Below are positions 12,017 through 31,316 of a stretch of 64,000 bases of DNA, in pieces. Source of the DNA: an uncultured Nitrospiraceae bacterium (lineage in GTDB: Bacteria; Nitrospirota; Thermodesulfovibrionia; Thermodesulfovibrionales; UBA9159); NCBI GenBank assembly GCA_964475485.1, contig CAYYWY010000007.1, positions 15,849 through 79,848 of the forward strand, written 5' to 3'. The notes under the pieces are model-generated. The model did not search any database. It had not been told where the DNA came from and saw only the letters and a list, made by a program, of their open reading frames with translations. Numbering within the stretch: the first letter of the stretch is position 1; each line of letters opens with the position of its first letter. Both the position numbers and the translations under genes were made by a program.

Positions 12017-12045
12017 TTGACAGGTAAATGATTTCATTATATATG
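12017..12045 (+). promoter_or_regulatory. Possible sigma-70-type promoter for the riboswitch-btuFCD transcript
   Basis: TTGACA at 12017-12022, a 17-nt spacer, then TATATG in an AT-rich stretch directly upstream of the riboswitch. Confidence 0.35.
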
Positions 12046-12049
12046 ATAA

Positions 12050-12240
12050 TAGTGACAAGGTGCCGGGAGGCTTAATAGGGAATCCCGTGAAGGTGAAAGC
12101 CGATTCGGGAGCGGTCCCGCCGCTGTGAACGGGGACAAAAGTCGACTTAGCCACTTTTCCGACTATCGGGATGGGAAGGCCGGCAAGTAGGATGATCCGT
12201 GAGCCAGAAGACCTGCCTGTAAACGACAGTGAGTGGCGTG
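12050..12240 (+). promoter_or_regulatory. Cobalamin riboswitch 1
   Basis: Core 'AATAGGGAATCCCGTGAAGGTGAAAGCC..GGTCCCGCCGCTGTGAACGGGGAC', 'GCCACT..GGGAAGGCCGG', and B12 box 'GAGCCAGAAGACCTGCC' (12201-12217). Lies upstream of a B12 ABC importer. Confidence 0.85.
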
Positions 12241-15004: not shown

Positions 15005-15711
15005 CGACCACTCTTTATTTGATCAGGCACGGAGAGACAGAATGGAGCGGTGCAAGACGCTATTGCGGGAGCATCGATGTGCCCCTCAATGAGAAGGGGA
15101 TGGACCAGATGAGGAGAGCCGCCCTTTTCGTGAGAGAGCATCTGAAAACTTCGACTTTGTCAAAATACTCAAGCTATTTAAGGGACCTCAATAGCAAGGA
15201 AAGGGCGAGCTCGGAAAGCGCTGGTCTTCCGGAGTTCCCGGAGCCGGTCTTGTCCGCGGTCTATTCTTCAGATCTGCGGAGAGCCTTTAAGAGTGCGGAG
15301 ATCGTGGCCGGGTGCCACGGTTTACAGGCCGTTGCGGTACCGGATCTGAGGGAACGGAGCTTCGGTGTCTGGGAGGGCATGACGTTTACTGAAATAAGAG
15401 AGAGGTATCCTTCGGAGTTCGAGTCCTGGGCCGGCAACCCTCTGAAGTATCATCCCGTGGGCGGAGAGAGCACCCATGAGGTGCGGGACAGGGTCGTTCC
15501 GGCGATTGAGGGGACACTGCAGGGGCACTCAGGCAAGAACATCGCAGTGGTTGCCCACGGAGGAGTGAACAGGATAATCCTCTGCCACTTCCTAGGGATG
15601 CCGTTGAAGCACATCTTCAGGATCGAGCAGGACCACGGCGCTGTGAACATCATCGAATTTTGGGAGAGATATCCTGTCGTGAAACTCATAAACGGAGTAC
15701 CGTATGATTAG
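15001..15711 (+). CDS. cobC: Histidine-phosphatase family protein, probably alpha-ribazole phosphatase CobC, with a low-complexity insertion
   Basis: 'LYLIRHGETEWS' (RHG motif), 'SSDLRRA', 'VVAHGG'. Last gene of the btuFCD operon. Confidence 0.7.
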   Translation: MTTTLYLIRHGETEWSGARRYCGSIDVPLNEKGMDQMRRAALFVREHLKTSTLSKYSSYLRDLNSKERASSESAGLPEFPEPVLSAVYSSDLRRAFKSAEIVAGCHGLQAVAVPDLRERSFGVWEGMTFTEIRERYPSEFESWAGNPLKYHPVGGESTHEVRDRVVPAIEGTLQGHSGKNIAVVAHGGVNRIILCHFLGMPLKHIFRIEQDHGAVNIIEFWERYPVVKLINGVPYD

Positions 15712-15744
15712 CCGTTAATACACCTGCTTTCAGCAGGAAAAGAG

Positions 15745-15950
15745 GGGTATACAAGGGGAATCCCGTAGATCCGGGAACTGCCCCGCAACTGTGAAGGGAA
15801 CGAAAGCCATATAAGCTCGTGGCTCATGGTTAACAGCTCATAGTCTGTGAACTGAGACCTGCGAGCTTCGAGCCAAAGAGGCCACTCGGCTTTAAAAGCC
15901 GGGGAAGGCGGGCAAGTAGGTAGATGCCCTGAGTCAGGAAACCCTGGATA
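15745..15950 (+). promoter_or_regulatory. Cobalamin riboswitch 2, with an enlarged variable region
   Basis: 'AAGGGGAATCCCGTAGATCCGGGAACTGCCCCGCAACTGTGAAGGGAACG', 'GCCACTCGG..CCGGGGAAGGCGG', and B12-box-like 'GAGTCAGGAAACCCTGGA' (15931-15948). Lies upstream of the btuB-like receptor. Confidence 0.8.
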
Positions 15951-16098
15951 CCTCGGAAACGTTATCCTTCGAGGGAAAAGGAGGTTTGCTATGAGACGGA
16001 ATACATGATAGCCGGAAATCAGTCCATACCTTAGCGGATCCGCCTAGGCGGACAGTCAAGGGTCAATAATTGAAAATGATCAAAAAGGAGAAAGGGTT

Positions 16099-18766: not shown

Positions 18767-19285
18767 ATGCGAAGAGGATATATTCAGGTGTACACCGGCA
18801 ACGGTAAGGGAAAGACGACAGCGGCGCTGGGGCTTGCCCTGCGGGCGGCAGGCGCGGGCCTCAGGGTTTTTATTGTCCAGTTCATCAAGAAGAGGAGATG
18901 CAGCGAGCACAGGATGCTTGAGAGATTCAAGGATGCGGTCACCGTACGGCAGTACGGCAAGGGTTTTATTCTCGGACGAAAGGCGGATGGGGCGGACATA
19001 AGGGCGGCACAGCTTGGTCTTGAAGAGGTCAGAAAGGTGATTCAGTCAAAGAACTACGACGTCGTGATCCTCGATGAGGCTACCGTTGCGGTGAATTGCG
19101 GTCTTCTCAGGGTTGAGGATCTCCTGGATATAATGAGCCTGAAGCCGAAGAGCATCGAACTGGTCATTACAGGAAGATATGCGGACAAGAGGATCATCAG
19201 GGCAGCGGACCTGGTCACGGAGATGAAGGAAGTCAAACATTACAAGAAGAAGGGAGTGAAGGCAAGGGCCGGCATCGAGTGGTGA
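18767..19285 (+). CDS. cobO: Cob(I)yrinic acid a,c-diamide / cob(I)alamin adenosyltransferase (CobO/BtuR type)
   Basis: 'GYIQVYTGNGKGKTTAALGLALRAAGAG' and 'DVVILDE'. 172 aa. Confidence 0.85.
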   Translation: MRRGYIQVYTGNGKGKTTAALGLALRAAGAGLRVFIVQFIKKRRCSEHRMLERFKDAVTVRQYGKGFILGRKADGADIRAAQLGLEEVRKVIQSKNYDVVILDEATVAVNCGLLRVEDLLDIMSLKPKSIELVITGRYADKRIIRAADLVTEMKEVKHYKKKGVKARAGIEW

Positions 19286-20001
19286 ACAGGCTCTGTATCA
19301 TAGGCATCGGCTACAGGCCGCTTTACGAGAAAGCGAGGGAGATCGTTCTTCGTTCGGACGTCATCCTCGCATCCGGAAGGCTTTTCGATATTTTCAGGAG
19401 ATACGAGGAATTTAAGAGCGTAAGGGACAGGGTAGAGGTCATCGACAACGTCGAGGCAACCATGAACTTCATAAGGAGCTGTTTCGCAGGTACCGAGCAC
19501 GGGACTTCGAACTTGGAGGGTAAGACCGTAGTTCTTCTTGCCTCCGGCGACCCCATGTTCTTCGGCATCGGGAGAAGGACGGTGGAGGAGTTCGGAAAGG
19601 TCGTGGTAGAGGTATTCCCCGATCTTTCGAGCATTCAGGTTGCCTTTTCGAAGATAAAGGAGCCGTGGGATGACGTATTTTTCATGAGTCTGCACGGAGG
19701 TCCGGATCCGCAAAAAAGAAGGAAACTGAGGCATGAGAAAAGTGATATACCGTTTTTGCTTGCAAAACATCACAAGATTGCCATTCTCACAGATAAAGAA
19801 AATAATCCTGGTGCCATAGCAAAAATTCTTGCCCAATCACCAATTACCAATCACCAATCACTGATAATGTACGTCTGCGAAAAACTCGGGTATCCGGATG
19901 AAAGAATCACTGAAGGGGCTCCAGAAGATATCGCAAAGGGGGTGTTTTCCGATCCGAACGTAGTCATACTTATCGCGGGGAATGATCTTTCCGGAGATTG
20001 A
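19279..20001 (+). CDS. cbiE: Precorrin-6Y C5,15-methyltransferase subunit CbiE-like (tetrapyrrole methylase fold)
   Basis: 'LCIIGIGY', 'VVLLASGDPMFFGIGRR'. No cbiT or other cbi genes follow it. Confidence 0.7.
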   Translation: MVNRLCIIGIGYRPLYEKAREIVLRSDVILASGRLFDIFRRYEEFKSVRDRVEVIDNVEATMNFIRSCFAGTEHGTSNLEGKTVVLLASGDPMFFGIGRRTVEEFGKVVVEVFPDLSSIQVAFSKIKEPWDDVFFMSLHGGPDPQKRRKLRHEKSDIPFLLAKHHKIAILTDKENNPGAIAKILAQSPITNHQSLIMYVCEKLGYPDERITEGAPEDIAKGVFSDPNVVILIAGNDLSGD

Positions 20002-20810: not shown

Positions 20811-21164
20811 TCACGATGATTGGATCGATCCACTGCTTCTGCTTAACTTTCCGCTATCGATGAATGTGATGCTCACGTCTTTCGGAAGGGCGAACCCGGC
20901 CTCCACCTCCATAGCCTTCAAGATGCCCGACGGCACGGGACAGGTGACATGCTTCAGATGTTTCGAGGCTGAACGGTAGACAGGGTTGTCGAGGAACCGG
21001 ACGAATACCGTCATCATATCCAGATACTCAACGTCCCCGGCCATCTTGCTCACCATCTCACAATCAGACGCAAGCGAGATGCGTATCTTCTTTCCGGCGG
21101 TTTTCTCAGCTGCTATTGTAGTCGTGAAACCGCAGATACCCGACTTTACAACGACCTTGGTCAT
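20811..21164 (-). CDS. Small Cys-containing hypothetical protein (117 aa), last gene of the minus-strand row
   Basis: 'VVVKSGICGFTTTI', 'SDCEMV', 'HVTCPVPSGILKAMEVEAG'. I cannot assign a family with confidence. Confidence 0.5.
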   Translation of the reverse strand: MTKVVVKSGICGFTTTIAAEKTAGKKIRISLASDCEMVSKMAGDVEYLDMMTVFVRFLDNPVYRSASKHLKHVTCPVPSGILKAMEVEAGFALPKDVSITFIDSGKLSRSSGSIQSS

Positions 21165-21210: not shown

Positions 21211-22020
21211 TCACACTTCCGGGATGTTACGGACATGGGCGAACATCCCGTTTATGGTTCTCGTCTTTTCCCTCTCTTTGGCAAGGAACAGGAGGATATC
21301 CTTCCTTATGGCATTGAGTTCGGCGCTCGTCCTGTCCCTGGGCCGGGGGATATCCACCTTGAGCATCTTTCCGATCTCGGCAGGCCTCGATGTCAGACAG
21401 ATGATCTCATCTCCAAGAAAAACAGCCTCTTCCACATTGTGTGTGACGAAAAGCACGGTCTTTCCTGTCTTTTCCCATACGTGCAGGAGGGCCACCTGCA
21501 TGTAGTTCCTTGTCTGGCAGTCAAGGGAGACGAACGGTTCATCCATGAGCAGCACCTTTGGTTCCACTACGAGGGCCATCGCAAGGGCAACCTTCTGTTT
21601 CATCCCCCCCGAGATCTCCTTGGGGTAAAAGTCCTTGAAATCCTGAAGCTCCACGAGCTCCAGGGCGTTTAGAGCCTTCTCCCTCCTCTGCTCTTTGGGA
21701 AGTCCCGCAATCTCAAGCCCGAACTCCACATTCCGTATCACTGTTCTCCAGGGCAGGAGGGCTGGCTCCTGAAAGATATACCCGATCTCCCTCGCCGGTG
21801 CGGTAATCTCCTTATCCCCGAGAAATACCCTTCCCCTGTCAGGCCTTTCGAGACCCGAGATCATCCTCAGAAGGGTTGTCTTTCCACAGCCGCTGGGGCC
21901 TATGATGCAGACAAATCTACCCTCGGATACTGTGAAAGAGATGTTACTTATGGCGTCTATCCTTCCCTCCTCCGTTGTGCTCACGAAGGACTTGTGAAGA
22001 GCGGTCACCCTCAGCTCCAT
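21211..22020 (-). CDS. ABC ATP-binding protein, NitT/TauT (nitrate/sulfonate/taurine) type
   Basis: 'GPSGCGKTTLLRMISGLERPDRG', 'ISGGMKQKVALAMAL', 'LLMDEPF'. Confidence 0.85.
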   Translation of the reverse strand: MELRVTALHKSFVSTTEEGRIDAISNISFTVSEGRFVCIIGPSGCGKTTLLRMISGLERPDRGRVFLGDKEITAPAREIGYIFQEPALLPWRTVIRNVEFGLEIAGLPKEQRREKALNALELVELQDFKDFYPKEISGGMKQKVALAMALVVEPKVLLMDEPFVSLDCQTRNYMQVALLHVWEKTGKTVLFVTHNVEEAVFLGDEIICLTSRPAEIGKMLKVDIPRPRDRTSAELNAIRKDILLFLAKEREKTRTINGMFAHVRNIPEV

Positions 22021-22021
22021 C

Positions 22022-22789
22022 TCATCTCCATCTAAGGAGCCTGCGTTCTGCGCTCCTTATGAGAAAATCCATGATGTATCCTATCGCTCCGATCACAGCC
22101 ATCCCGGCAATAATCTGGTCCGGCCGCTGAATGTCCCTTGCAGTCATGATCATGTATCCGAGGCCGTAGCCGCTCTTCACCCCGGTGAATTCCGCCGCCA
22201 CAAGGGTCATCCACCCGATGCCCATGGCTATCCTTATCCCTGTAATGATGGAGGGCATCGCCCCCGGGGCAAGTACCTTGATGAGGAAAGCCGCTTTCTT
22301 TGCGCCTAATATTCTCGATGACTCAATAAGTCTTCTGTTGATGGACATCACCCCTCCGGTCGTGTTCAGGAGGATAGGGAAAAAGGCGCCGAGGAATATG
22401 ATGAAGGATGAGGACTTGTCGCCTATGCCAAACCAGAGAATTGCTATGGGTACCCATGCAAGGGGAGGTATGGGCCGTATCATCTCCACAAAGGGAGTGA
22501 GGAGATCCCTTACCTTCCCCCAGTATCCCATGAATATTCCCAGGGGCAGGGCCGCGACTATGGCTATGGCCACGCCGCCCAATACCCTCTTCAAACTCCC
22601 GATACAGTGACCGATAAGGTGATACCCGGGAGGCAGACCATCTGTTACGAGTTCCGTGAAACCATGGAGTATCGTGACTGGAGAAGGAAGCCTGTTGCCG
22701 GGGATGACACCATAGAAGGACAGAGTTTCCCAGAGGATGATAAGGCCAAAGACCGGAAGATAGCGGAGCGCTTTATATGCCCCTGGCAT
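22022..22789 (-). CDS. ABC permease, NitT/TauT type
   Basis: Six-TM BPD-type permease with 'EMIRPIPPLAWVPIAILWFG'. Confidence 0.85.
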   Translation of the reverse strand: MPGAYKALRYLPVFGLIILWETLSFYGVIPGNRLPSPVTILHGFTELVTDGLPPGYHLIGHCIGSLKRVLGGVAIAIVAALPLGIFMGYWGKVRDLLTPFVEMIRPIPPLAWVPIAILWFGIGDKSSSFIIFLGAFFPILLNTTGGVMSINRRLIESSRILGAKKAAFLIKVLAPGAMPSIITGIRIAMGIGWMTLVAAEFTGVKSGYGLGYMIMTARDIQRPDQIIAGMAVIGAIGYIMDFLIRSAERRLLRWR

Positions 22790-22830
22790 GCTCTTGCTCT
22801 CCCTGTCTGAAGTGAAGGAGAATCATCCGC

Positions 22831-23793
22831 CTATCTTGTTGCGTCCCTGATCATCTTCGTGTCAAGAAATTCGAGGGCGAAGGCGTCTATATCAAGTGGC
22901 TTCACATATCCGAGCTTGAGGAGATAGGTTACATACTCCTTTATGTCCTCCTCTCTCGGAGAATGATTGTAGTCGATGTGCCTTATCGCCTCCCTGACCG
23001 TGGCTTCGTCCATTCCCGTATATTTCGTGCCGACCTTCAGGGCCTCCTCCCGGTTCTTCTTTATGAATTCAGTCGCCTTCACGTGGGCCTTCACAAAGGC
23101 CTTCACGACCTGAGGATTTTCCCTGTAGAAGCCCTCCTCCACCGCAACGATACAGCAGGGATGGCCTTTCCATATCATGGGAGACGAGGTGAGGACCCTG
23201 CCCTTGCCTCTGGTCACCGCCTTTGAGGGATGGGGCTCCCATGCGATAAATGCATCTATCTGTCTTGATTCCAGGGCCACGAGCATCTCAGGGGGCTTGA
23301 TCACGATGATGTTCACCTTCCTGGGGTCGACCCCTGCTCCCTCCAGGGCCTTCCTCAAAAGAAAATCCTGCACGCTGGAATAACCGGGGATTGCAACTGT
23401 CTTCCCTATCAGGTCCTTCACATTCCTTATTGCCGAGTCCTTCCCCACCACTATTGAAGAGCCCTCCGCATTTGCGAGGGCGACCGCCTTCACGGAAGCG
23501 GACCTGTTCGCTACCCCCGTTGCACTCGGCGCAACTCCGATGTAGCCTATGTCGAGGCTCTTTGAGGCAAAGGCAGACATCTCCTCGGGGCCGGCATTGA
23601 ATATCCCTGCTACTTCCACTTCGATCCCCTCGTCCTTAAAGAAACCCCTTTCCATCGCCACCCATGCAGCGAGGTGATGGAGGTCATTCCTCAGGTAACC
23701 GAGCCTGACCTTCTTGGGTGGAGCAGCAAAGACCAGCGTACAGAGCACGATCAGTATTACTGAGACCGCCGTCAAGATCCATTTCGATTTCAT
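22831..23793 (-). CDS. ABC substrate-binding protein, NMT1/SsuA-like
   Basis: Signal peptide, then 'KVRLGYLRNDLHHLAAWVAMERGFFKDEGIEVEV'. Confidence 0.8.
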   Translation of the reverse strand: MKSKWILTAVSVILIVLCTLVFAAPPKKVRLGYLRNDLHHLAAWVAMERGFFKDEGIEVEVAGIFNAGPEEMSAFASKSLDIGYIGVAPSATGVANRSASVKAVALANAEGSSIVVGKDSAIRNVKDLIGKTVAIPGYSSVQDFLLRKALEGAGVDPRKVNIIVIKPPEMLVALESRQIDAFIAWEPHPSKAVTRGKGRVLTSSPMIWKGHPCCIVAVEEGFYRENPQVVKAFVKAHVKATEFIKKNREEALKVGTKYTGMDEATVREAIRHIDYNHSPREEDIKEYVTYLLKLGYVKPLDIDAFALEFLDTKMIRDATR

Positions 23794-23804: not shown

Positions 23805-25778
23805 TTATGCTTTTATTTCCACTATGCTCTCTGACTTTTCGAGCATCGCCTTCAGATTCGGAAATTTATCTTTCATGTGGGGGATATGCATTGCCTGCAT
23901 GAACTCCTTTTCGAATGACGGGTCAGTGGCTATCTCAAGGAACTCGACCCATCTTGCCCTTTCATTGGCCTCAACCCTTTTCCCCTTGTTAAGAAGGGCC
24001 ATCCTTGCGCCGTCTCCCGCCGCATTGCCCACGGCGTACACCTTTTCAATGGGACAGTCGGGGAACATGCCGAGGGTGAGGGAGGCTTCCCTGTCGATGT
24101 GGCTGCCGAAGGCCCCTGCGAGCACAACCCTGTCGAGCTTTGCGATCCCGAGCCTCTTCATCATCAGTTTCGCCCCTGTGTACAGGGCTCCCTTCGCGAG
24201 TTGAAGGGCTCTCACGTCCGCCTGTGTGATCGTGATATCGGTTCCGATCGACGTCTCTTCAGCCCAGGCAAGGACATACTCAGGTTTGCCTTCCGCATCC
24301 TTCCGTACTCTCGGTGTGCCGAGGTCCATCACGAATCTTCCCGACTTGTCTATAATCCCGGCCTTGAACATCTCGGCAACAATCTCTATTATCCCTGACC
24401 CGCAGATGCCCTTCGCATTCACCTTCTCGAGATAGGTATGCCAGTCTGCCTTTCCGATGACCTTGTAAAGGGGCTCCTTTGTGACAGGGTCGATCTTGAC
24501 CTTCTCGATGGCGCCGGGCGCCGCTCTCATGCCGAACTTGATCTGGGCGCCTTCAAAGGCAGGCCCCGTGGCGCACGAGGTCGAGCAGACCTTCTCCCTG
24601 TTGCCGAGGAGAAGTTCGCCGTTTGTCCCGATGTCGATGATGAGTACCATCTCGTCCTGATTGTAGGGTTCCTCCGCAATTAAGACCCCCACGTTGTCCG
24701 CACCAACGAAGCCTGCCTCTATGGGCAGGACATGGATATATGCAGCGGGATTGATCTTCAGGCCGATATCCCTTGCCTTGATGTTTAGTGAACTCTGCAC
24801 TGCAGGTATAAAGGGGGAGCGTCCGATATATTCAGGGTTGAACCCGAGCAGTATATGGTGCATGGCGGTATTGAAGACGATGGTGAGGTCATCTATTGCA
24901 AAGCCGGGGTTCGAACCGTCCTTTCTGATCTCTGTCACCACTTTTTCGATAATCTCGTTCAAGCCATCGATGATGGCCTTCTGCATTATTTTAAGACCAT
25001 CAGGGTTGCTCATGGCATAGGTTATGCGGGACATCACGTCTTCTCCGTAGGGCACCTGAGGGTTCATCATCGATTCGGTATTCACGACCCTGCCTGTGTT
25101 CAGGTCGGAGAGATATCCGACGCAGGTTGTGGTTCCCACGTCCACTGCAAGGCCGTAGCAAGTCTCTACAAAGCCCGGCTCGACCTTAATGATCTCCCTG
25201 TCCATCCATACCGTTACGGTCGCCTTCCAGTTGCCCTTTCTCAGAACGTCCTGAAGATCCCTAAGCACCATGTAATCGAACGTAAGGTTCTTGAGGCCAT
25301 AATCCTCTTCGAGGAATCTGAGCACCCTCTCATAATCACCGGTCGTCATGTCATGAAGTGTTGGGGGAACAAGGTCGACGTTGTACTTCTTGACAGCCGG
25401 ATCCAAGGCTATGGAAAGTTCCTTTGCCGCCTTCCGTACGACCTGCTTGCCCGCCCTTGAACGTTCTGGGACGAAGACCTTTACATCGCCGTACACCTCG
25501 GCAGTGCAGGCAAGACGGATCCCGGGGCCGTCCTCGGGTTTGATATGTTTCTTTTCAGCCTCGGTGATGGGGGAGAGATGGGCCATGCCTGACTCCATCC
25601 CGTCTTTTTCAAAGTACCCCTCCTCAATCCTTACCTTGCATTTTCCGCAGACCTTCTTGTTTCCGCAGAGGGCCTCAATGTCTACCCCGAGGGACTGGGC
25701 GGCTTCAAGGAGCGTCTTTCCCTCCTCAATCTCCCCCCTTCGTCCCGAAGGCTGGAATATGACTCTATGTTTTGCCAT
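23805..25778 (-). CDS. Second corrinoid activation protein (RACE/RamA-like; 2Fe-2S + ASKHA)
   Basis: 'VIFQPSGRRGEIEEG..CGNKKVCGKCKVRI', 'LAVDVGTTTCVGYL', 'IDIGTNGELLLG'. Colinear with the paralogue at 9460. Confidence 0.9.
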   Translation of the reverse strand: MAKHRVIFQPSGRRGEIEEGKTLLEAAQSLGVDIEALCGNKKVCGKCKVRIEEGYFEKDGMESGMAHLSPITEAEKKHIKPEDGPGIRLACTAEVYGDVKVFVPERSRAGKQVVRKAAKELSIALDPAVKKYNVDLVPPTLHDMTTGDYERVLRFLEEDYGLKNLTFDYMVLRDLQDVLRKGNWKATVTVWMDREIIKVEPGFVETCYGLAVDVGTTTCVGYLSDLNTGRVVNTESMMNPQVPYGEDVMSRITYAMSNPDGLKIMQKAIIDGLNEIIEKVVTEIRKDGSNPGFAIDDLTIVFNTAMHHILLGFNPEYIGRSPFIPAVQSSLNIKARDIGLKINPAAYIHVLPIEAGFVGADNVGVLIAEEPYNQDEMVLIIDIGTNGELLLGNREKVCSTSCATGPAFEGAQIKFGMRAAPGAIEKVKIDPVTKEPLYKVIGKADWHTYLEKVNAKGICGSGIIEIVAEMFKAGIIDKSGRFVMDLGTPRVRKDAEGKPEYVLAWAEETSIGTDITITQADVRALQLAKGALYTGAKLMMKRLGIAKLDRVVLAGAFGSHIDREASLTLGMFPDCPIEKVYAVGNAAGDGARMALLNKGKRVEANERARWVEFLEIATDPSFEKEFMQAMHIPHMKDKFPNLKAMLEKSESIVEIKA

Positions 25779-25875: not shown

Positions 25876-26541
25876 CTACCCTGCCTTGCAGGAAACAGCC
25901 GAACCTTTCCGGGGCACCTTCCTTCCGTAAGGACATATGTTCACGCACAATCCACAGTTTGGCTTGCCGTTGAGGCTCCTCGCATTCCCCTTATGAGAAC
26001 GGCACTTGTCCAACCGTATTAGTTCGACAAAAGGTTCGTATCGGGACCATTGCCCTCCCGTGATCGCATTGGATGGACAGAAATCAGCGCAGAGATTACA
26101 TTCCCCACACATGCTGAACTCAACAGGTGCATCCGCCGGGACAGGGGCGTCCGTAAGAACCGTTGCAAGTGAGAGTCTGGGACCGAAGTCAGGGCTGATC
26201 AGGAGGCCATTTCTGCCGACCCAGCCCAGTCCCGCAGAGGTAGCGGCCATCTTATGGTTGAAAAGCGGGTAAAGCCTTGATACGAACGTGCCCCTCACCC
26301 TGTCCGAGTCCGGGGGGATGCAGAGGTACCTGTATCCCTTCCTCTTAAGATACTGGGCAGCCTTTTTCTGCAGCCTGACGAGCAGGAGGATTGTATCCTC
26401 GTTCAACTTCCTGGCGACCCCTATGGAAATTGCGGTCTCAAGGTGTGCAATCTCTTCCCCGAGCACTCCCCGCAAGTGTGCATAGCCCACGACCGTGGCG
26501 CCTGCCTTCAGAAGTTCACTCTTTAGGGTCCTGGCTATCAC
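25876..26541 (-). CDS. Short QueG/RdhA-like 4Fe-4S protein
   Basis: 'HKMAATSAGLGWVGRNGLLISPDFGPRLSLATVLTDAPV' and two Cys clusters 'CGECNLCADFCP', 'CGLCVNICPYG'. I prefer the GTG at 26541, which overlaps the upstream stop (GTGA), over the ORF-track start at 26649. Confidence 0.7.
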   Translation of the reverse strand: MIARTLKSELLKAGATVVGYAHLRGVLGEEIAHLETAISIGVARKLNEDTILLLVRLQKKAAQYLKRKGYRYLCIPPDSDRVRGTFVSRLYPLFNHKMAATSAGLGWVGRNGLLISPDFGPRLSLATVLTDAPVPADAPVEFSMCGECNLCADFCPSNAITGGQWSRYEPFVELIRLDKCRSHKGNARSLNGKPNCGLCVNICPYGRKVPRKGSAVSCKAG

Positions 26542-27227
26542 GCTCTCTTTGCCTCGGCCTCTTCCTTGAGTTTCTTGAGTGAGCTGATCATATTGATGGC
26601 ATCCTTCAAAGCGTTGTTCGCATCCTTTGCATACCCGTCTGCTCCCCACTTCTCTGCGATGTCCTGTGAAACAGGCGCGCCGCCGATCATGATCTTTACG
26701 TTTGGATTCTTCGCATGGAGGTTGTCGATGACCTTCTTCATGCCCGTCATCGTAGTGGTCATCATGGCAGAGAGGCAGACGAGGTCCGAATCGGTCCTCA
26801 GCTGTTCTTCCACAAACTTGTCAAGAGGGACGTCGCGGCCGAGGTCGTACACCGTGAAACCTGCGACATCGAACATCATCTTCACGATATTCTTGCCGAT
26901 GTCGTGGACATCGCCTTCCACTGTACCGATGACCACCGAGCCTTTTACCCCAAGGTCGAGCTGCTTGACGTGCGGTTTCAGTATGTCCAGTCCGGCATAG
27001 AGGGCGTCGGCGCACATGAGGAGCTCGGGCACAAAGTACTCCTGTGCCTCAAAGAGCCTACCTACCTCCTCCATGCCGCTCACCAGACCGTTAAAGATCG
27101 CTTCATTTGCATCCATGCCCACATCCAGCGCCTCCTGCGCAGTCTCTTTCGCCGCATCCTCGTCATACTGTATCACGGCGTTTCTCAGTCTCTCTAAAAG
27201 CTCTTTCTTTTTTTCTTCTGTTACCAT
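26538..27227 (-). CDS. Second corrinoid (B12-binding) protein
   Basis: ATG at 27227 preceded by 'caggaggtagaa'. DxHxxG motif 'GDVHDIGKN', plus 'LSAMMTTTM' and 'IMIGGAP'. Confidence 0.9.
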   Translation of the reverse strand: MVTEEKKKELLERLRNAVIQYDEDAAKETAQEALDVGMDANEAIFNGLVSGMEEVGRLFEAQEYFVPELLMCADALYAGLDILKPHVKQLDLGVKGSVVIGTVEGDVHDIGKNIVKMMFDVAGFTVYDLGRDVPLDKFVEEQLRTDSDLVCLSAMMTTTMTGMKKVIDNLHAKNPNVKIMIGGAPVSQDIAEKWGADGYAKDANNALKDAINMISSLKKLKEEAEAKRA

Positions 27228-27229
27228 TT

Positions 27230-28267
27230 CTACCTCCTGTAATTTCTTACTTCGTCCATCATTGCCAGAATGTTTTCGGCCGGGACGGTGGGCCATATGT
27301 CGCAGCCGGGCCAGACCGCGCTCACCCCATCGTCCATGCATTTCTTCATGGTTTGTCTCACCAGCTTGGTGGTCCCTGCCACAAGGATATTGTAAGGATC
27401 GTAGTTGCCGAAGATCAGGGCGTCCCTGCCCAGCTTCTTTCGGGACTCAGCCACGTCGTTTTTCTGGTCGACGCTTATCGCCTTTGCACCGGTCTCCATC
27501 ATAAAGGGGACGATGTCGTTGGTCTTGCCGCATATATGAAGAACGCTCGGGACGGTGAGCCTGTCGAATATCTTCTTCAGATAAGGCTGTATGAGGTTCT
27601 TGAAGACTCTGGGGCTAAGGACGTCCGACGTCGCACCCATCTCCCTCACCGTGAGGTAATCTACCCCTGCCTTCTCATACCGGCCGGCCACTGCTATAAT
27701 GGCATCGGCGAGCAGGTCGAGGAGGCTCCCGACCTTGTCCGGCTTCTTGAATGAGAGTTTCAGCAGGTCGTTCAGTTCCATGATCTGTCCTGCAAGAGTG
27801 AACGGACCGAGGACATAGGAGCCCACAGGGACCTCCTCGCCTATCTGATTCTTTAACAGTCCGATGGCCTCGCATACAAGGGATATCCTGCCCTTTTCCT
27901 GAAAGTCGGCGGATACCGAGATTCCCATCTCCTCCTCACTGGTGATGAGTTTCTTTTTGATGGTGGGATAGAGAAGGTCTTCGGAATGGGCATACACGTT
28001 TATCTCACAGCCCAGCGCCTCTGCCTCGACGCAGAGGTCAAATGGTACCACACCGCACTCAAATCCGAAAAGTCTGTAGGTCGACGCCGCCGCGTCGGCC
28101 ATCATCTTTGCATCGAGATGAGAAGCCGCGAACTTATATCCGAGGGACTTCAACCCCTCTGCAGTGACATTTCCCATCCCGCTGAAACAGGGCGGACGGT
28201 CAACCTCTTCCCCTGCAAAGAGTCTGGCTATCCTTTCTTTAGGTGTTACGGTTGTGATCGACATCAT
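27230..28267 (-). CDS. URO-D family corrinoid methyltransferase, paralogue 3 (closest to paralogue 1)
   Basis: 'TPKERIARLFAGEEVDRPPCFSGMGNV', 'VPFDLCVEAEALGC', 'LHICGKT' ... 'VWPGCDIWP'. Confidence 0.85.
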   Translation of the reverse strand: MMSITTVTPKERIARLFAGEEVDRPPCFSGMGNVTAEGLKSLGYKFAASHLDAKMMADAAASTYRLFGFECGVVPFDLCVEAEALGCEINVYAHSEDLLYPTIKKKLITSEEEMGISVSADFQEKGRISLVCEAIGLLKNQIGEEVPVGSYVLGPFTLAGQIMELNDLLKLSFKKPDKVGSLLDLLADAIIAVAGRYEKAGVDYLTVREMGATSDVLSPRVFKNLIQPYLKKIFDRLTVPSVLHICGKTNDIVPFMMETGAKAISVDQKNDVAESRKKLGRDALIFGNYDPYNILVAGTTKLVRQTMKKCMDDGVSAVWPGCDIWPTVPAENILAMMDEVRNYRR

Positions 28268-28300: not shown

Positions 28301-29248
28301 TTACTTGCGTGCTCCTCCAAGTGTCAGTTTTTCTATGAAATCGGAGAAGAATTTCCTTATAGGCAGACCCCTGTTCTCGGGCATATGCTTTGTTTCATCA
28401 TACACAAGGGTGGTAAGCAGGATGTGCGCTGTTGCTACCGCAGGGAATATCCTCGGTGCGGTTACAATGGGTCCATAGAAATTGAAATCGCTCCACAAAA
28501 CCGAAGACATGCCCTGGGCTACTGCATCCATAGCCCTGAAACCGTCCAGACCCCAGACCGTCTTCGCATCTTTCCACATGTGCGTGCCGTTGGAATAGGC
28601 GCCGCCGCATGGAAGGCCCAGTTTCTCCTTTATGAGTCTGTTTGCGAGGAGGGAAAAGGACGTGGCAGGTAGGTTCATCACGGAAGTATCCACGATGACA
28701 GTGTCAAAGCTGTCCGCCCCCTGAGCAAGAATGCTTTCCAGGGACTTGAGACGGCCTGCCGGTGATTGGTCCGTGTCGTCGAATGCCTGTATCACCACAT
28801 GCCTTATGCCGAGGTCTTTGAGTTTGTTCACCTGCCCCATTATGTCCTTGTCCCAAGGGGTGATGCTGTTATACAGGAACTTGTCCTGCACACCGAGTTT
28901 CGATACGTACTCTGTTGCCTTTGCCCTTTTTTCGGCGACCCACATATCTATGCCGAAAGGCATAGAGGTCGTCTCGAGATAGAAGTCTATGTAAACCTGA
29001 GCTTCTTCAGGGGTATTTGCCACCATCGCCACCATTCCGGGGATTCCGGTGGAGGCTGAGAGCTCTTCCTGTTTCCTGATAAGTTCCTTTGCCTTCTGCC
29101 TGTCGAAGTTTCCCTTCCTGTCCACAAGGATCTTGTCCTTATTGTGAAACATTGAAGCAATGAGCAGAGGCGGGTATTCTCCCGGCTGACCGCCTATCCT
29201 TATTCCCGACAAATCGAAAACCTTCTGTTCAGTTGTGAAATTAAACAT
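28301..29248 (-). CDS. MtrH-like pterin (tetrahydrofolate/tetrahydromethanopterin) : corrinoid methyltransferase
   Basis: N-terminus 'MFNFTTEQKVFDLSGIRIGGQPGEYPPLLIASMFH' matches the MtrH family signature. The ATG at 29248 is chosen; the upstream extension in the ORF track has no homology pattern. Confidence 0.8.
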   Translation of the reverse strand: MFNFTTEQKVFDLSGIRIGGQPGEYPPLLIASMFHNKDKILVDRKGNFDRQKAKELIRKQEELSASTGIPGMVAMVANTPEEAQVYIDFYLETTSMPFGIDMWVAEKRAKATEYVSKLGVQDKFLYNSITPWDKDIMGQVNKLKDLGIRHVVIQAFDDTDQSPAGRLKSLESILAQGADSFDTVIVDTSVMNLPATSFSLLANRLIKEKLGLPCGGAYSNGTHMWKDAKTVWGLDGFRAMDAVAQGMSSVLWSDFNFYGPIVTAPRIFPAVATAHILLTTLVYDETKHMPENRGLPIRKFFSDFIEKLTLGGARK

Positions 29249-29337
29249 TTCTTCTCCTCGTTCTTGAATCAAGACACAACCCTTCCCTGAAATGCAGGAA
29301 ATTGCGGGGGAGGCAGCGCCTCCCCCGTGCACAGCGA

Positions 29338-29784
29338 TTAGTACACACCATGGTCGAACTTAGGCTGCGGCAGATACTCCCAGCTCTCTCCCTTTCTGTA
29401 CTTTGCCTCGATATCAAGACATTTCAGTGCGTATTCGAAGGCGTAAGGTATTCCAGGTCCGCCGGGCACAAAGCCTGCCAGGATCATGCCAACGGCCGCT
29501 GCCTCGAATATCTCACCGGTGGTCGCTCCTGCGTCGATGGCAGGGATTACATGGATAATGCAGCGAGGCGAGCAGTAACCCACTCCTCCCGCCATGAACA
29601 TGAGTTCCTTCACTTTCTTGGACAGAGCTCCGTCTCCGAAGATCGTGGCATAGAAGTCAGCAAATGTCTTTCCCGGATCAGGGGTGACCGTGTTGATGAT
29701 CTGGAACATCCTCGGGACAAATCCCATCTTGTTCTTCATGTAATCATTCACTTCCTGAGCCGACATCTTTTTCTCTTCTGCCAT
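29338..29784 (-). CDS. Carboxymuconolactone decarboxylase / AhpD-like family protein
   Basis: ATG at 29784 preceded by 'aaaggagg'. 'LSKKVKELMFMAGGVGYCSPRCIIHVIPAIDAGATTGEIFEAAAV' resembles the CMD core, but with C-x3-C spacing. Confidence 0.55.
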   Translation of the reverse strand: MAEEKKMSAQEVNDYMKNKMGFVPRMFQIINTVTPDPGKTFADFYATIFGDGALSKKVKELMFMAGGVGYCSPRCIIHVIPAIDAGATTGEIFEAAAVGMILAGFVPGGPGIPYAFEYALKCLDIEAKYRKGESWEYLPQPKFDHGVY

Positions 29785-29904
29785 TGTTGCCTCCTTTTGG
29801 TGGCCGGAAGGCGCCTTCCGGACGAACAGTTTTCTCACCTCATCAAAAATCCCCATGGTCTACCTCCGTTACATCGGGTTGCTCTCTTTCACCTCCTTCA
29901 GTCC

Positions 29905-30942
29905 TCAGAGTTTCCACTGAAACGCCACATCGTGGAATCTCTTAAGGTTTTCGTATGGTATGGTTGGCGGTATGTCGCATCCCGGCACGAGAACGAATCC
30001 CCCGTCCTTGCCAGCGATTTCTATCACCTCTCTGCACGCCTGTTCGACCTCATCTGCCGTTTTGTTGAGCAGTACGTGAACAGGGGCGATATTCCCTCCG
30101 AAGCACATCTTGCCGAAGAGGACTTCCTTTGCCTTCCTGATATCAACCTTCTGGTCAAAGAATATGGTGCTTGCGCCTGTCACCGGGAAAAGCTCGAGGC
30201 GGTCGCTGGTATCTCCGCAAATGTGCAGGATGGTATGAACCTTCCTTGCCCTTGCCCAGTCAGTCATTTTTTTCAGCGGAGGCACGGCAAAACGTTCCAT
30301 CTGCTTTCTGTTTATCAGGTCTCCGGATGCGGTCGGGTCCGCGATACTGATGCACTCAAGCCCGTCCGAGACAAGAGGCTCGTAAAGATGGATGAGAAGG
30401 TCCGCGCAAAAGTCCGCCATCTTTTCGACGAAGGCGGGCTTTTTGAATATGGCCTTCATAAACGGCTCTTCACCCACCATACGAGCTGCAAGGGTAAAGG
30501 GACCCCAGCAGGTCATAGTTACGAGGTGCCTGTTGCCGATTTTTTCCTTCACCCTCCTTGTGGCTTCCATCACGGTCTGAACGACCGGCTCCTTGTGCAC
30601 ATCCCCGATATCGAGCTTTGCGATATCCTCCTCGGAATTGATAAAGTGGGTGGTTAGGTCGGGAGCTCCTATTTCGCGGTACTTGATCCCAGCGCCGAAA
30701 GCCTTGCCGAGGGCGAAAGCATGGAAGTTGTTATAGCCGGAACCGACGTATACCACATCGCTCCTTATCCTCTCTGCCTCCGCGACGCACATGTCGGTCA
30801 TCTTGCCGGGGTCGAGAGAGAGTTCTTCGAAGCTTGTGCCGTAATCCTTGATAGACCACATACCCCCTCCGAAAAGGGTAACCGGAACCCTTTCTGGTTT
30901 TCCCATCTCAAAAGCCCTCAGTACGATTTCCCTCGGCGTCAT
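29905..30942 (-). CDS. URO-D family corrinoid methyltransferase, paralogue 4
   Basis: 'TPREIVLRAFEMGKPERVPV', 'LHICGDTSDRL' ... 'LVPGCDIPP'. Confidence 0.85.
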   Translation of the reverse strand: MTPREIVLRAFEMGKPERVPVTLFGGGMWSIKDYGTSFEELSLDPGKMTDMCVAEAERIRSDVVYVGSGYNNFHAFALGKAFGAGIKYREIGAPDLTTHFINSEEDIAKLDIGDVHKEPVVQTVMEATRRVKEKIGNRHLVTMTCWGPFTLAARMVGEEPFMKAIFKKPAFVEKMADFCADLLIHLYEPLVSDGLECISIADPTASGDLINRKQMERFAVPPLKKMTDWARARKVHTILHICGDTSDRLELFPVTGASTIFFDQKVDIRKAKEVLFGKMCFGGNIAPVHVLLNKTADEVEQACREVIEIAGKDGGFVLVPGCDIPPTIPYENLKRFHDVAFQWKL

Positions 30943-30962: not shown

Positions 30963-31316
30963 CTAAAATGGATGGAATAATGCTCCAAAACCGCGAACAT
31001 CCCTGATAGTCCTCCTGAACTCCTCAAGGTCAAGGGGCGACCTCATGCTCACCACATCACTATCGGGTCTATCAGGCCCTACGAAAATGACCACAATGTC
31101 AGGGGACTCGCTCCGAATGATCTGCGCCGCTTCATCGGCGGAAAGTCCAAAGGAGTCCGAATCGATTATGACGGCACGAAACTTTCTCCGGAAGACCATC
31201 TGGACAGCAAGGGCGGAATGATCCACAGTCTCAACACTGAAACCCTCATCTCTAAGTATCCCGTAGAGGTTTTTGATCAGGATGGGATTATGTGTACATA
31301 AAAGGACTTCATTCAC
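30963..31316 (-). CDS. Stand-alone CheY-like receiver domain with a degenerate acidic pocket
   Basis: GTG start. 'AVIIDSD' could hold the phospho-Asp, but the N-terminal DD/DE pair is replaced by 'CTHN'. 117 aa. Confidence 0.5.
   Translation of the reverse strand: MNEVLLCTHNPILIKNLYGILRDEGFSVETVDHSALAVQMVFRRKFRAVIIDSDSFGLSADEAAQIIRSESPDIVVIFVGPDRPDSDVVSMRSPLDLEEFRRTIRDVRGFGALFHPF

Follow-up and report, generated by a model that had tools for sequence, protein, structure and literature searches.

Why should a protein that resembles an epoxyqueuosine reductase be encoded in the middle of a set of genes for corrinoid-dependent methyl transfer? The question is raised by contig CAYYWY010000007.1 of an uncultured Nitrospiraceae bacterium (assembly GCA_964475485.1), of which positions 15,849 to 79,848 were analysed. 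This whole stretch of 64,000 nt is referred to as the window, and coordinates are given relative to it. An open reading frame (ORF) running from 26541 to 25876 on the minus strand comprises 222 codons including the stop and encodes a minimal protein of 221 aa of the QueG/reductive dehalogenase (RdhA) type. It was recognised as such from its translation, a match to the Pfam model Fer4_16, sub-threshold NCBIfam matches to reductive dehalogenases and QueG, an AlphaFold2 (AF2) model and Foldseek. An earlier note, made from the sequence of the window, had described it as a truncated QueG coupled to a corrinoid-protein gene and possibly relaying electrons to the corrinoid system or binding a second corrinoid. 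The best explanation of the data presented here is that the QueG-like protein is a dedicated component of a methyl-transfer cassette, and not a tRNA-modifying enzyme or a dehalogenase.

A short QueG-like gene joined to a corrinoid-protein gene

On the minus strand, positions 26541 to 26538 read GTGA, such that the GTG start of the QueG-like gene and the TGA stop of the corrinoid gene overlap by 4 nt. A purine-rich AAGAGAG lies immediately 5′ of this start. The overlapping GTG start and the length of about 221 aa given in the earlier note agree with this junction and with the translation. An identical 221 aa protein is on record at NCBI (P0001) and the N-termini of homologues are concordant. 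Moreover, the junction is kept, with the start lying -4 to +13 nt from the corrinoid stop in 59/66 measurable genomes, and the two reading frames overlap in 26 of the 66 measurable loci. The gene is real and the 221 aa start is correct. Translational coupling to the corrinoid gene, also claimed from the window, stands for the clade of the window protein, in which the junction mostly stays within this range, but not for its sister clade, in which the neighbour is DUF6951 or an AhpD-like gene. Scans for promoters and terminators between 23500 and 31600 gave counts not above shuffled controls, leaving separate transcription unsupported. The frame can be extended to a maximum of 257 aa, the start then being a GTG (26649) located 110 nt within the corrinoid gene. 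As E. coli QueG has 379 aa, a full-length QueG is impossible here, which excludes the alternative that the gene is a complete QueG read from the wrong start.

The translation bears out both the QueG/RdhA signature and the two 4Fe-4S cysteine motifs that had been read from the window. The signature, AGLGWVGRNGLLISPDFGPRLSL, occupies residues 103-125, and an AGLGWVGRNG loop is present. The eight cysteines (C145-x2-C148-x2-C151-x3-C155-P and C180...C196-x2-C199-x3-C203-P) have the spacing of B. subtilis QueG (Cys188-X2-Cys191-X2-Cys194-X3-Cys198-Xn-Cys214-Xm-Cys240-X2-Cys243-X3-Cys247; PMC5175355). All eight are invariant in both homologue alignments, as is the loop in the form AGLGWxG(K/R)N. The protein is laid out as a cobalamin-binding-type core (residues 1-~143), a 2x[4Fe-4S] ferredoxin domain (~144-208) and a disordered tail of 13 aa. 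Pfam cut-offs are passed by ferredoxin-type models only (Fer4_16, residues 145-206). The best NCBIfam match is to the reductive dehalogenase model TIGR02486 (70.8 bits, residues 96-206), which does not reach its cut-off of 160.35, and the QueG model TIGR00276 matches residues 97-162 only (63.3 bits, cut-off 200, not reached). A sequence search of the PDB matched NpRdhA, PceA and QueG over residues ~95-213 only, the strongest matches being RdhA structures (E 2e-13 to 7e-12). PF08331 (QueG_DUF1730), which is detected in E. coli QueG at residues 62-140, was undetected in the window protein. The N-terminus, MIARTLKSELL, contains no twin-arginine motif of a Tat signal. There is neither an rdhB anchor gene nearby nor a fused reductase module, the neighbours being the corrinoid protein and the RACo-type activase, and the protein has no extra domain. 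Membership of the QueG/RdhA superfamily, as first proposed, is corroborated by the NCBIfam and PDB sequence matches and by Foldseek. The curated models place the protein inside the superfamily but in neither named family.

The QueG-like protein belongs to a large group of short proteins. Of 1.84 billion cluster representatives searched, 7001 matched at E<=1e-3 and 1177 of these also at E<=1e-10; the top-scoring ones listed are mostly ~220-260 aa. With a profile search, 2955 proteins were found at E<=1e-10, their sources being Planctomycetota, Clostridia and other groups. Many family members are automatically annotated as 'epoxyqueuosine reductase'. Homologues of the window protein at E<=1e-3 number 734, of which the best 120 are 207-248 aa long and 65-100% identical to it. 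Among 73 orthologues, 61 positions are at least 95% conserved, and the gene is under strong purifying selection. Thirty four positions are common to the window clade and distant members, including His96, Lys97, Thr101, the GxGWxG loop, Trp165 and the eight cysteines. The invariant positions specific to the window clade number 27, many of them charged, and include His33, the I-P-P-D-S-D-R loop at 75-81, Leu90-Tyr91, Asn111, Lys184, Lys193-Pro194-Asn195 and Arg207. Two arginines that are kept elsewhere in the family have also been lost from the clade. One of them aligns with PceA Arg305, a position occupied by Arg in at least 90% of sequences of the wider short family. These clade-specific residues and losses are consistent with adaptation to a different partner or substrate.

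Relatives of greater length either are tandem duplications or carry a fused GNAT, NUDIX or alpha/beta-hydrolase domain (duplicated or fused distant members are P0335, P0350, P0375, P0180, P0198, P0220, P0244, P0129 and P0135). None of these longer relatives is a 'Rosetta stone' fusion to a corrinoid domain, RACo, DUF6951 or an AhpD-like protein. Around one distant member (locus L009) there are many genes for GNAT, APH and glyoxalase proteins. The contexts of distant members suggest other, unrelated substrates for the same minimal core.

Comparison with QueG, RdhA and CblC

The AF2 model of the QueG-like protein, built on a 92-sequence alignment, is confident (pLDDT 90.4, pTM 0.86). Over the whole query, its best Foldseek match is QueG (5d08, 5t8y and 5d6s; E 2e-10, query-normalised TM 0.64-0.68). 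The set of QueG, PceA and NpRdhA matches spans E 2e-10 to 1e-6 and query-normalised TM 0.60-0.68, and human CblC/MMACHC is matched more weakly (E 4e-5, TM 0.47). As the N-terminal ~95 residues have no sequence match but are matched structurally, they also belong to the cobalamin-binding core. The description 'truncated QueG' is right as to length (221 aa) but wrong as to truncation, because the whole length superposes on a cobalamin core plus a ferredoxin domain, an architecture common to thousands of proteins.

Comparison with QueG used the structures from B. subtilis (5D08/5T8Y) and S. thermophilus (5D6S) and the E. coli gene b4166. The protein shares with QueG the layout of cobalamin core and 2x[4Fe-4S] ferredoxin domain, the eight-cysteine pattern, the AGLGWxGK loop and a basic residue under the corrin ring. 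The alignment with full-length QueG that the earlier note had called for shows what remains, namely the core and the ferredoxin domain, and what is missing. E. coli QueG residues 145-258 align with window residues 96-208. Its N-terminal part is ~49 residues longer and bears the DUF1730 signature, both of which the window protein lacks, and there is no counterpart in the window protein to its HEAT domain (residues 259-379, the 121 C-terminal residues). Overall, QueG proteins have 379-385 aa as opposed to 221 aa. In B. subtilis QueG, Leu257-Leu385 form a HEAT-like tRNA-binding domain that rests on a 28-residue Cbl-insert and an Fd-insert (PMC5175355). As the HEAT domain binds tRNA, it is the tRNA-specific C-terminal domain of QueG that is missing here. 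The N-terminal domain of the window protein is ~45-50 residues shorter than that of QueG, and the lost residues are not placeable by sequence alignment. The difference is consistent with loss of the 28 aa Cbl-insert, which would explain most of it. The ferredoxin insert is likewise shorter in the window protein.

The residues around the corrin ring were compared after the numbering of PDB chains had been calibrated by the published cysteine numbers of QueG (offset 28). Lys97, invariant in the family, aligns with Arg141 of B. subtilis QueG and Arg146 of E. coli QueG. Arg141 sits 4 Å under the corrin ring and its mutation impairs QueG (PMC5175355). The preceding His96 replaces Asp140 of B. subtilis and Glu145 of E. 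coli. An equivalence of His96 with the catalytic acid of QueG, Asp134 (acting with His106; PMC5175355), was considered and ruled out by the calibrated numbering, which places His96-Lys97 at Asp140-Arg141. Asp134 itself lies 6 residues before the alignable block, and ungapped extension of the sequence leads to Leu90/Tyr91, where there is no conserved acidic residue. The clusters of QueG titrate at -575 and -510 mV (PMC5175355), which is low enough for Co(I) formation.

The RdhA structures (PceA 4UQU, NpRdhA 4RAS and the membrane RDH 8Q4H) have the fold class and the cofactor-binding region in common with the window protein, which is less than half their length. Arg305 in the active site of PceA, the partner of the catalytic Tyr, corresponds to Ser124 of the window protein, and this position is not conserved in the clade. 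CblC/MMACHC has a B12-binding core of related fold by Foldseek (sequence identity ~12%), and the relationship of CblC to the QueG-type B12 core has been stated previously (PMC5175355). With CblC, there is already one protein of this fold whose target is the cofactor and not an outside substrate. However, CblC lacks Fe-S clusters and uses flavin or glutathione, whereas the window protein has 2x[4Fe-4S] motifs. By analogy, a CblC-like role in cofactor processing is one hypothesis for the window protein.

No description or published function was found in literature searches on the short QueG-like family, DUF6951 and the Nitrospirota cassette, in agreement with the earlier note, which knew of no assigned role for such a short form. 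A large survey of RdhA-like proteins spans 300-1000 aa, leaving the short QueG-like family outside it. The placement in the fold, together with the lack of a description, marks out a distinct subfamily of the QueG/RdhA/CblC fold class.

A conserved cassette and its rearranged relatives

In a scan covering a single genome for each GTDB species, 80 loci were found, almost all of them in Nitrospirota and one in Rokubacteria. Nine genes occur in the order receiver-like, URO-D methyltransferase, AhpD-like, MtrH-like, MtaA-like URO-D methyltransferase, corrinoid protein, QueG-like, RACo and DUF6951. The order corrinoid protein, QueG-like protein, RACo is seen in 80/80 species genomes, with the corrinoid gene found in 78 and RACo in 76, the gaps being contig ends. 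The receiver-like gene is in first position in 51/80 loci and DUF6951 is present in 68/80. The cassette was also found in loci L001-L007, in many metagenome loci and in one Methylomirabilia genome. The invariable order and the close junction bear out the tight link to corrinoid protein and RACo first seen in the window. The QueG-like gene is a fixed member of a nine-gene corrinoid methyl-transfer operon throughout the Nitrospirota. This fixed and coupled membership points to a real helper of the pathway and not to a broken QueG.

In one metagenome-assembled genome with the full cassette (L011), a second, partial copy was seen (L010:2366-5170), in which a QueG-like ORF lacking ~20 N-terminal residues is followed by RACo. 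Upstream, the opposite strand carries ClpB-like gene fragments, and a corrinoid gene is missing; the copy may be a remnant of a rearrangement.

All cassette genes of the window lie on the minus strand. The first (30963..31316) encodes a receiver-domain-like protein of 117 aa with a sub-threshold match to PF00072. It is followed by the second URO-D methyltransferase, UROD_B (29905..30942; PF01208), which has the motifs LHICGD and VPGCDI and scores 186 bits with TIGR01463, below cut-off. The AhpD/CMD-like protein (29338..29856; PF02627) has 172 aa and a C-S-P-R-C-x2-H motif. Its NCBIfam similarities are weak and are to ArsM_AhpD_UU, MduS and the GSU3128 family, AhpD-domain (seleno)proteins that are attached to arsenite or other methyltransferases. 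The MtrH-like methyl-corrinoid:pterin methyltransferase (28301..29248; PF02007; NF002142 334.6 bits, cut-off 287) most likely starts at 29248, giving 315 aa as judged by homologue lengths, while the mechanical ORF (28301-29332) would give 343 aa. The MtaA-like URO-D methyltransferase, UROD_A (27230..28267), has the H-x-C...C motifs LHICGK and WPGCDI. It passes the cut-offs of both the methylcobalamin:coenzyme M (CoM) methyltransferase model NF004889 (284.8 bits, cut-off 244) and TIGR01463 (253.2 bits, cut-off 235.4). The corrinoid protein (26538..27227) consists of a B12-binding_2 cap and a B12-binding Rossmann domain by Pfam, has the DxHxxG motif in the form DVHDIG and scores 213.3 bits with TIGR02370 against a cut-off of 215.3. 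Its start is the ATG at 27227, 2 nt past the URO-D stop and behind an AGGAGG, which gives 229 aa where homologues have 229-230 aa; the mechanical ORF (26538-27341, 267 aa) is overextended.

Beyond the QueG-like gene lies the RACo-type ATP-dependent reductive activase of 657 aa (23805..25778; Pfam Fer2, RACo_linker, Raco_middle and RACo_C_ter). By its translation, the N-terminal [2Fe-2S] ferredoxin domain is intact (C38, C44, C47 and C91). Between it and DUF6951, the ORF list and Pfam place a NitT/TauT-type ABC transporter (21211..23793) made up of an NMT1/TauA-like binding protein (22831-23793), a permease (22022-22789) and an ATPase (21211-22020). This insertion is shared by a minority of relatives (e.g. 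L001, L002, L011, L015 and L031). The last conserved cassette gene encodes the DUF6951 protein of 117 aa (20811..21164; PF22263), in which Cys11, Cys35, His72 and Cys75 are invariant in the alignment. Its AF2 model has a pLDDT of 85.7, and its weak Foldseek matches (E 0.03-0.9) are all to Fe-S scaffolds or sulfur carriers of the IscU/SufE/CsdE/SufU type.

Two cobalamin riboswitches on the plus strand (12041-12234, 100.2 bits; 15703-15964, 50 bits) lie upstream of plus-strand genes. Among the genes past them are those for a TonB-like protein, a CobO-type adenosyltransferase (18767-19285) and a precorrin methylase-like protein (19279-20001), so a B12 supply locus adjoins the end of the cassette in the window. 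Among the 80 loci, CobO is nearby in 4 and CobW in 26. Linkage to B12 biosynthesis, considered as support for a cofactor-processing role, is weak on these counts.

At 38-56% identity, relatives are found in corrinoid methyltransferase clusters that are either reshuffled or of a different make-up. When metagenomes were scanned with the nearest outgroup as seed (~43% identity to the window protein), many loci showed the cassette with its gene order unchanged, and others, for example L097, L099, L100, L101, L136 and L145, showed its genes in shuffled order. For relatives at 38-48% identity, the surrounding clusters have nothing in common with the cassette but URO-D methyltransferases, a corrinoid protein and an activase. 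One of these (L108) combines a RamA-type activase, DUF1638, a corrinoid protein, four URO-D proteins, a pterin-binding methyltransferase and a formate-tetrahydrofolate ligase. Another (L129) has the order DUF2284, URO-D, corrinoid protein, RACo, QueG-like, URO-D, DUF1638. The representative P0125 lies ~5 kb from pyrrolysine genes and an MtmB/MtmC pair. Every linked cluster contains a corrinoid protein, an activase and thiol-type methyltransferases. The QueG-like gene is obligatorily linked to genes for MtaA-like methyltransferases, a corrinoid protein and its ATP-dependent activase, and this linkage survives both rearrangement and change of partners; below ~38% identity, the association with corrinoid clusters is gone.

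In some sister-clade loci (L091:2509-11262, L141 and L159), genes for DUF6951, the QueG-like protein and DUF2284 stand beside a module of other genes. On inspection of their N-termini only, these look like a GcvH-like protein, lipoyl synthase, a dihydrolipoamide-dehydrogenase-like flavoprotein, a thioredoxin-like protein, DGC-type zinc proteins and a 311 aa URO-D-like protein.

Four further genes lie downstream of the cassette in 54-56/80 genome loci (for example L004:12753-17139). They encode a NarI/QmoC-like cytochrome-b-like membrane protein, an HdrD/TfrB/DsrK-like CCG Fe-S protein, cysteate synthase (TIGR03844 467.7 bits, cut-off 324.9) and a fused sulfopyruvate decarboxylase, ComDE. Cysteate synthase and sulfopyruvate decarboxylase constitute the methanogen-type route to sulfoacetaldehyde and coenzyme M. 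Genes of the CoM biosynthesis type thus adjoin MtaA-like 'methylcobalamin:CoM methyltransferases' in bacteria, which suggests that the Nitrospirota methyl-transfer pathway depends on coenzyme M or a similar thiol. The window lacks all four genes, with no cysteate synthase or ComDE within its 64 kb, and has the sulfonate-type ABC transporter instead; transporter and CoM-type genes may represent uptake versus synthesis of a sulfonate. The idea that the QueG-like protein and DUF6951 together are the missing bacterial CoM synthase is unsupported, because the window has the pair without cysteate synthase or ComDE. Moreover, L108 and L129 have the QueG-like gene without DUF6951.

Known corrinoid systems offer partial parallels. 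In the mec cassette for anaerobic degradation of dichloromethane, RACo is paired with DUF1638. DUF1638 (MecG, and in split MetH reactivation), like RamA and RACo, is one of the genes other than methyltransferases that regularly accompany a corrinoid protein and a RACE/Ram activase, and the QueG-like gene of the window occupies the same kind of slot beside RACo, with no relation to DUF1638 in sequence or fold. MecG was rejected as an equivalent of the QueG-like protein, being unrelated and co-occurring with it in L108 and L129, so that neither replaces the other. In the type 1 mlp clusters described by Kountz and Balskus, a corrinoid protein and RACE are combined with several MtaA-like URO-D methyltransferases that have His-Cys-Cys zinc sites; these clusters were proposed to act in methyl-sulfur or methyl-selenium metabolism (PMC10418091). 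They have no pterin methyltransferase, and neither a QueG-like gene, DUF6951 nor Nitrospirota is mentioned there (PMC10418091). By gene content, the window cassette differs from them in having MtrH, AhpD-like, QueG-like and DUF6951 genes in a fixed order.

Possible roles of the QueG-like protein

From the fold, motifs, conservation and linkage described above, we infer a cofactor content, an electron path and a target for the QueG-like protein. The reading that we favour, with a probability of roughly 0.4, is that of a stand-alone minimal reductase with a cobamide and 2x[4Fe-4S] that serves the cobalt cycle of the corrinoid protein. Low-potential electrons would enter through the distal cluster (Cys145/148/151/203), pass to the proximal cluster (Cys155/180/196/199) and arrive at a base-off cobamide bound by the N-terminal alpha/beta core, with the invariant Lys97 beneath it. 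This cobalt/Fe-S centre would perform a reductive step on the cobalt chemistry that the cassette needs. The likeliest target would be the corrinoid cycle itself, with the cobamide of the co-translated corrinoid protein being kept in, or brought to, a ligand-free reduced state. To this end, the protein could act beside RACo as a source of electrons at about -0.5 V, strip off an unwanted upper ligand reductively as CblC does, or do both. The coupled junction and the constant position of the gene between those for the corrinoid protein and RACo make us lean towards such a corrinoid-directed role.

Several observations weigh against this. The binding of a cobamide is itself predicted from fold and motifs. 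The [2Fe-2S] domain of RACo is intact and RamA-type activases carry clusters of their own, so no additional electron module is obviously needed. Most characterised corrinoid methyltransferase systems, such as the mec cassette and type 1 MGCs, do without a QueG-like protein, and genes for B12 adenosyltransferases are rarely near the cassette (CobO in 4/80). In the sister clade the QueG-like gene adjoins DUF6951, the AhpD-like gene or DUF2284 and not the corrinoid gene or RACo. Lastly, distant members of the short family occur in contexts devoid of corrinoid genes and are fused to GNAT or hydrolase domains, suggesting that the family is basically one of small-molecule enzymes.

Some of these observations favour a B12/Fe-S reductase directed at a substrate, which would use its own cobamide to convert a methyl donor or thiol cofactor into a form that the URO-D methyltransferases accept. 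Such an enzyme might deoxygenate a sulfoxide or selenoxide, dehalogenate its substrate, or act reductively on a CoM-type sulfonate thiol or its precursor. We regard such a role as doubtful, yet nearly as likely as the corrinoid-directed one. A complete core of catalytic type is conserved, including the family-invariant His96-Lys97 and Trp165, and the clade-invariant basic residues R81, K184, K193 and R207 could bind an anionic substrate. The GNAT and hydrolase fusions and the lack of corrinoid genes around the wider short family are as expected for enzymes, and most corrinoid systems manage without such a factor. Every linked cluster encodes MtaA-like methyltransferases of the thiol type with H-x-C...C motifs, such that a shared thiol or methyl-sulfur chemistry could explain the linkage as well as the corrinoid protein does. 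The sister-clade neighbours (AhpD-like, DUF6951 and DUF2284) are thiol or metal proteins. However, methyl transfer from a thioether to a pterin requires no net reduction, and the methyltransferase content of the linked clusters varies widely. The loss in the window clade of the arginine aligned to PceA Arg305 also counts against a substrate-directed enzyme, as does the fixed and coupled position of the gene between those for the corrinoid protein and RACo.

A simpler possibility, which we consider improbable, is a plain electron carrier with two [4Fe-4S] clusters only, in which the N-terminal part would be a docking scaffold without cobamide and electrons would pass from cellular donors to the [2Fe-2S] domain of RACo. 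That only the ferredoxin domain reaches curated family thresholds would fit this, as would the position directly upstream of RACo in 76/80 loci. Archaeal RamA, moreover, takes in electrons via two [4Fe-4S] clusters (TIGR04270 match; a RamA-type activase is present in L108). Yet a ferredoxin of 55 aa would suffice for electron transfer, whereas here the N-terminal 140 residues are conserved as much as the ferredoxin part and the cobalamin-site loop and Lys97 are kept. The protein is also found beside RamA-type activases that already bear such clusters.

That the protein is a genuine epoxyqueuosine reductase, a QueG without its HEAT domain that is in the operon by chance, is very improbable. The automatic annotation of many members and the best structural match, QueG, speak for it. 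Against it stand the TIGR00276 score (63 bits, cut-off 200), the undetected DUF1730, the absent HEAT domain and the lack of a conserved acidic residue alignable to the loop of catalytic Asp134. Unlike QueG genes, this gene is located in a methyltransferase operon, and the fixed synteny in 80/80 genomes offers no rationale for a tRNA enzyme. A decayed fragment or mis-called ORF, as might be suspected from a length far below that of QueG and RdhA and from a GTG start inside an overlap, is ruled out by the number and uniform length of homologues, their conservation, the confident structure prediction and the synteny.

To our knowledge, only three activities are known for this B12 fold, namely dehalogenation, epoxyqueuosine reduction and the processing of cobalamin by CblC. 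A version of 221 aa, pared down to the part that binds the cofactors and fixed in an operon for corrinoid-dependent methyl transfer, suggests an additional use for this fold and would provide a small, tractable model of it. At its boldest, the corrinoid-directed reading would make it a fourth functional class of the RdhA/QueG/CblC fold: a protein-directed cobamide reductase or dealkylase that loads, repairs or, independently of ATP, re-reduces the cobamide of the corrinoid protein. This would take place within a hitherto unrecognised bacterial methyl-transfer pathway that depends on CoM or a similar sulfonate thiol, beside cysteate synthase, sulfopyruvate decarboxylase and a heterodisulfide-reductase-like complex in Nitrospirota. 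We consider this full version unlikely.

Routine mis-annotation of the family as 'epoxyqueuosine reductase' distorts predictions of the queuosine pathway. Corrinoid proteins have to obtain low-potential electrons and a ligand-free cobamide, and a dedicated partner gene makes the source of both directly testable. Nitrospirota of soils and the subsurface widely carry the cassette, often linked to genes for coenzyme M biosynthesis, and the parts of the cassette bear on anaerobic methyl-sulfur and C1 cycling. This CoM-linked context raises the value of working out each component of the cassette, the QueG-like protein included.

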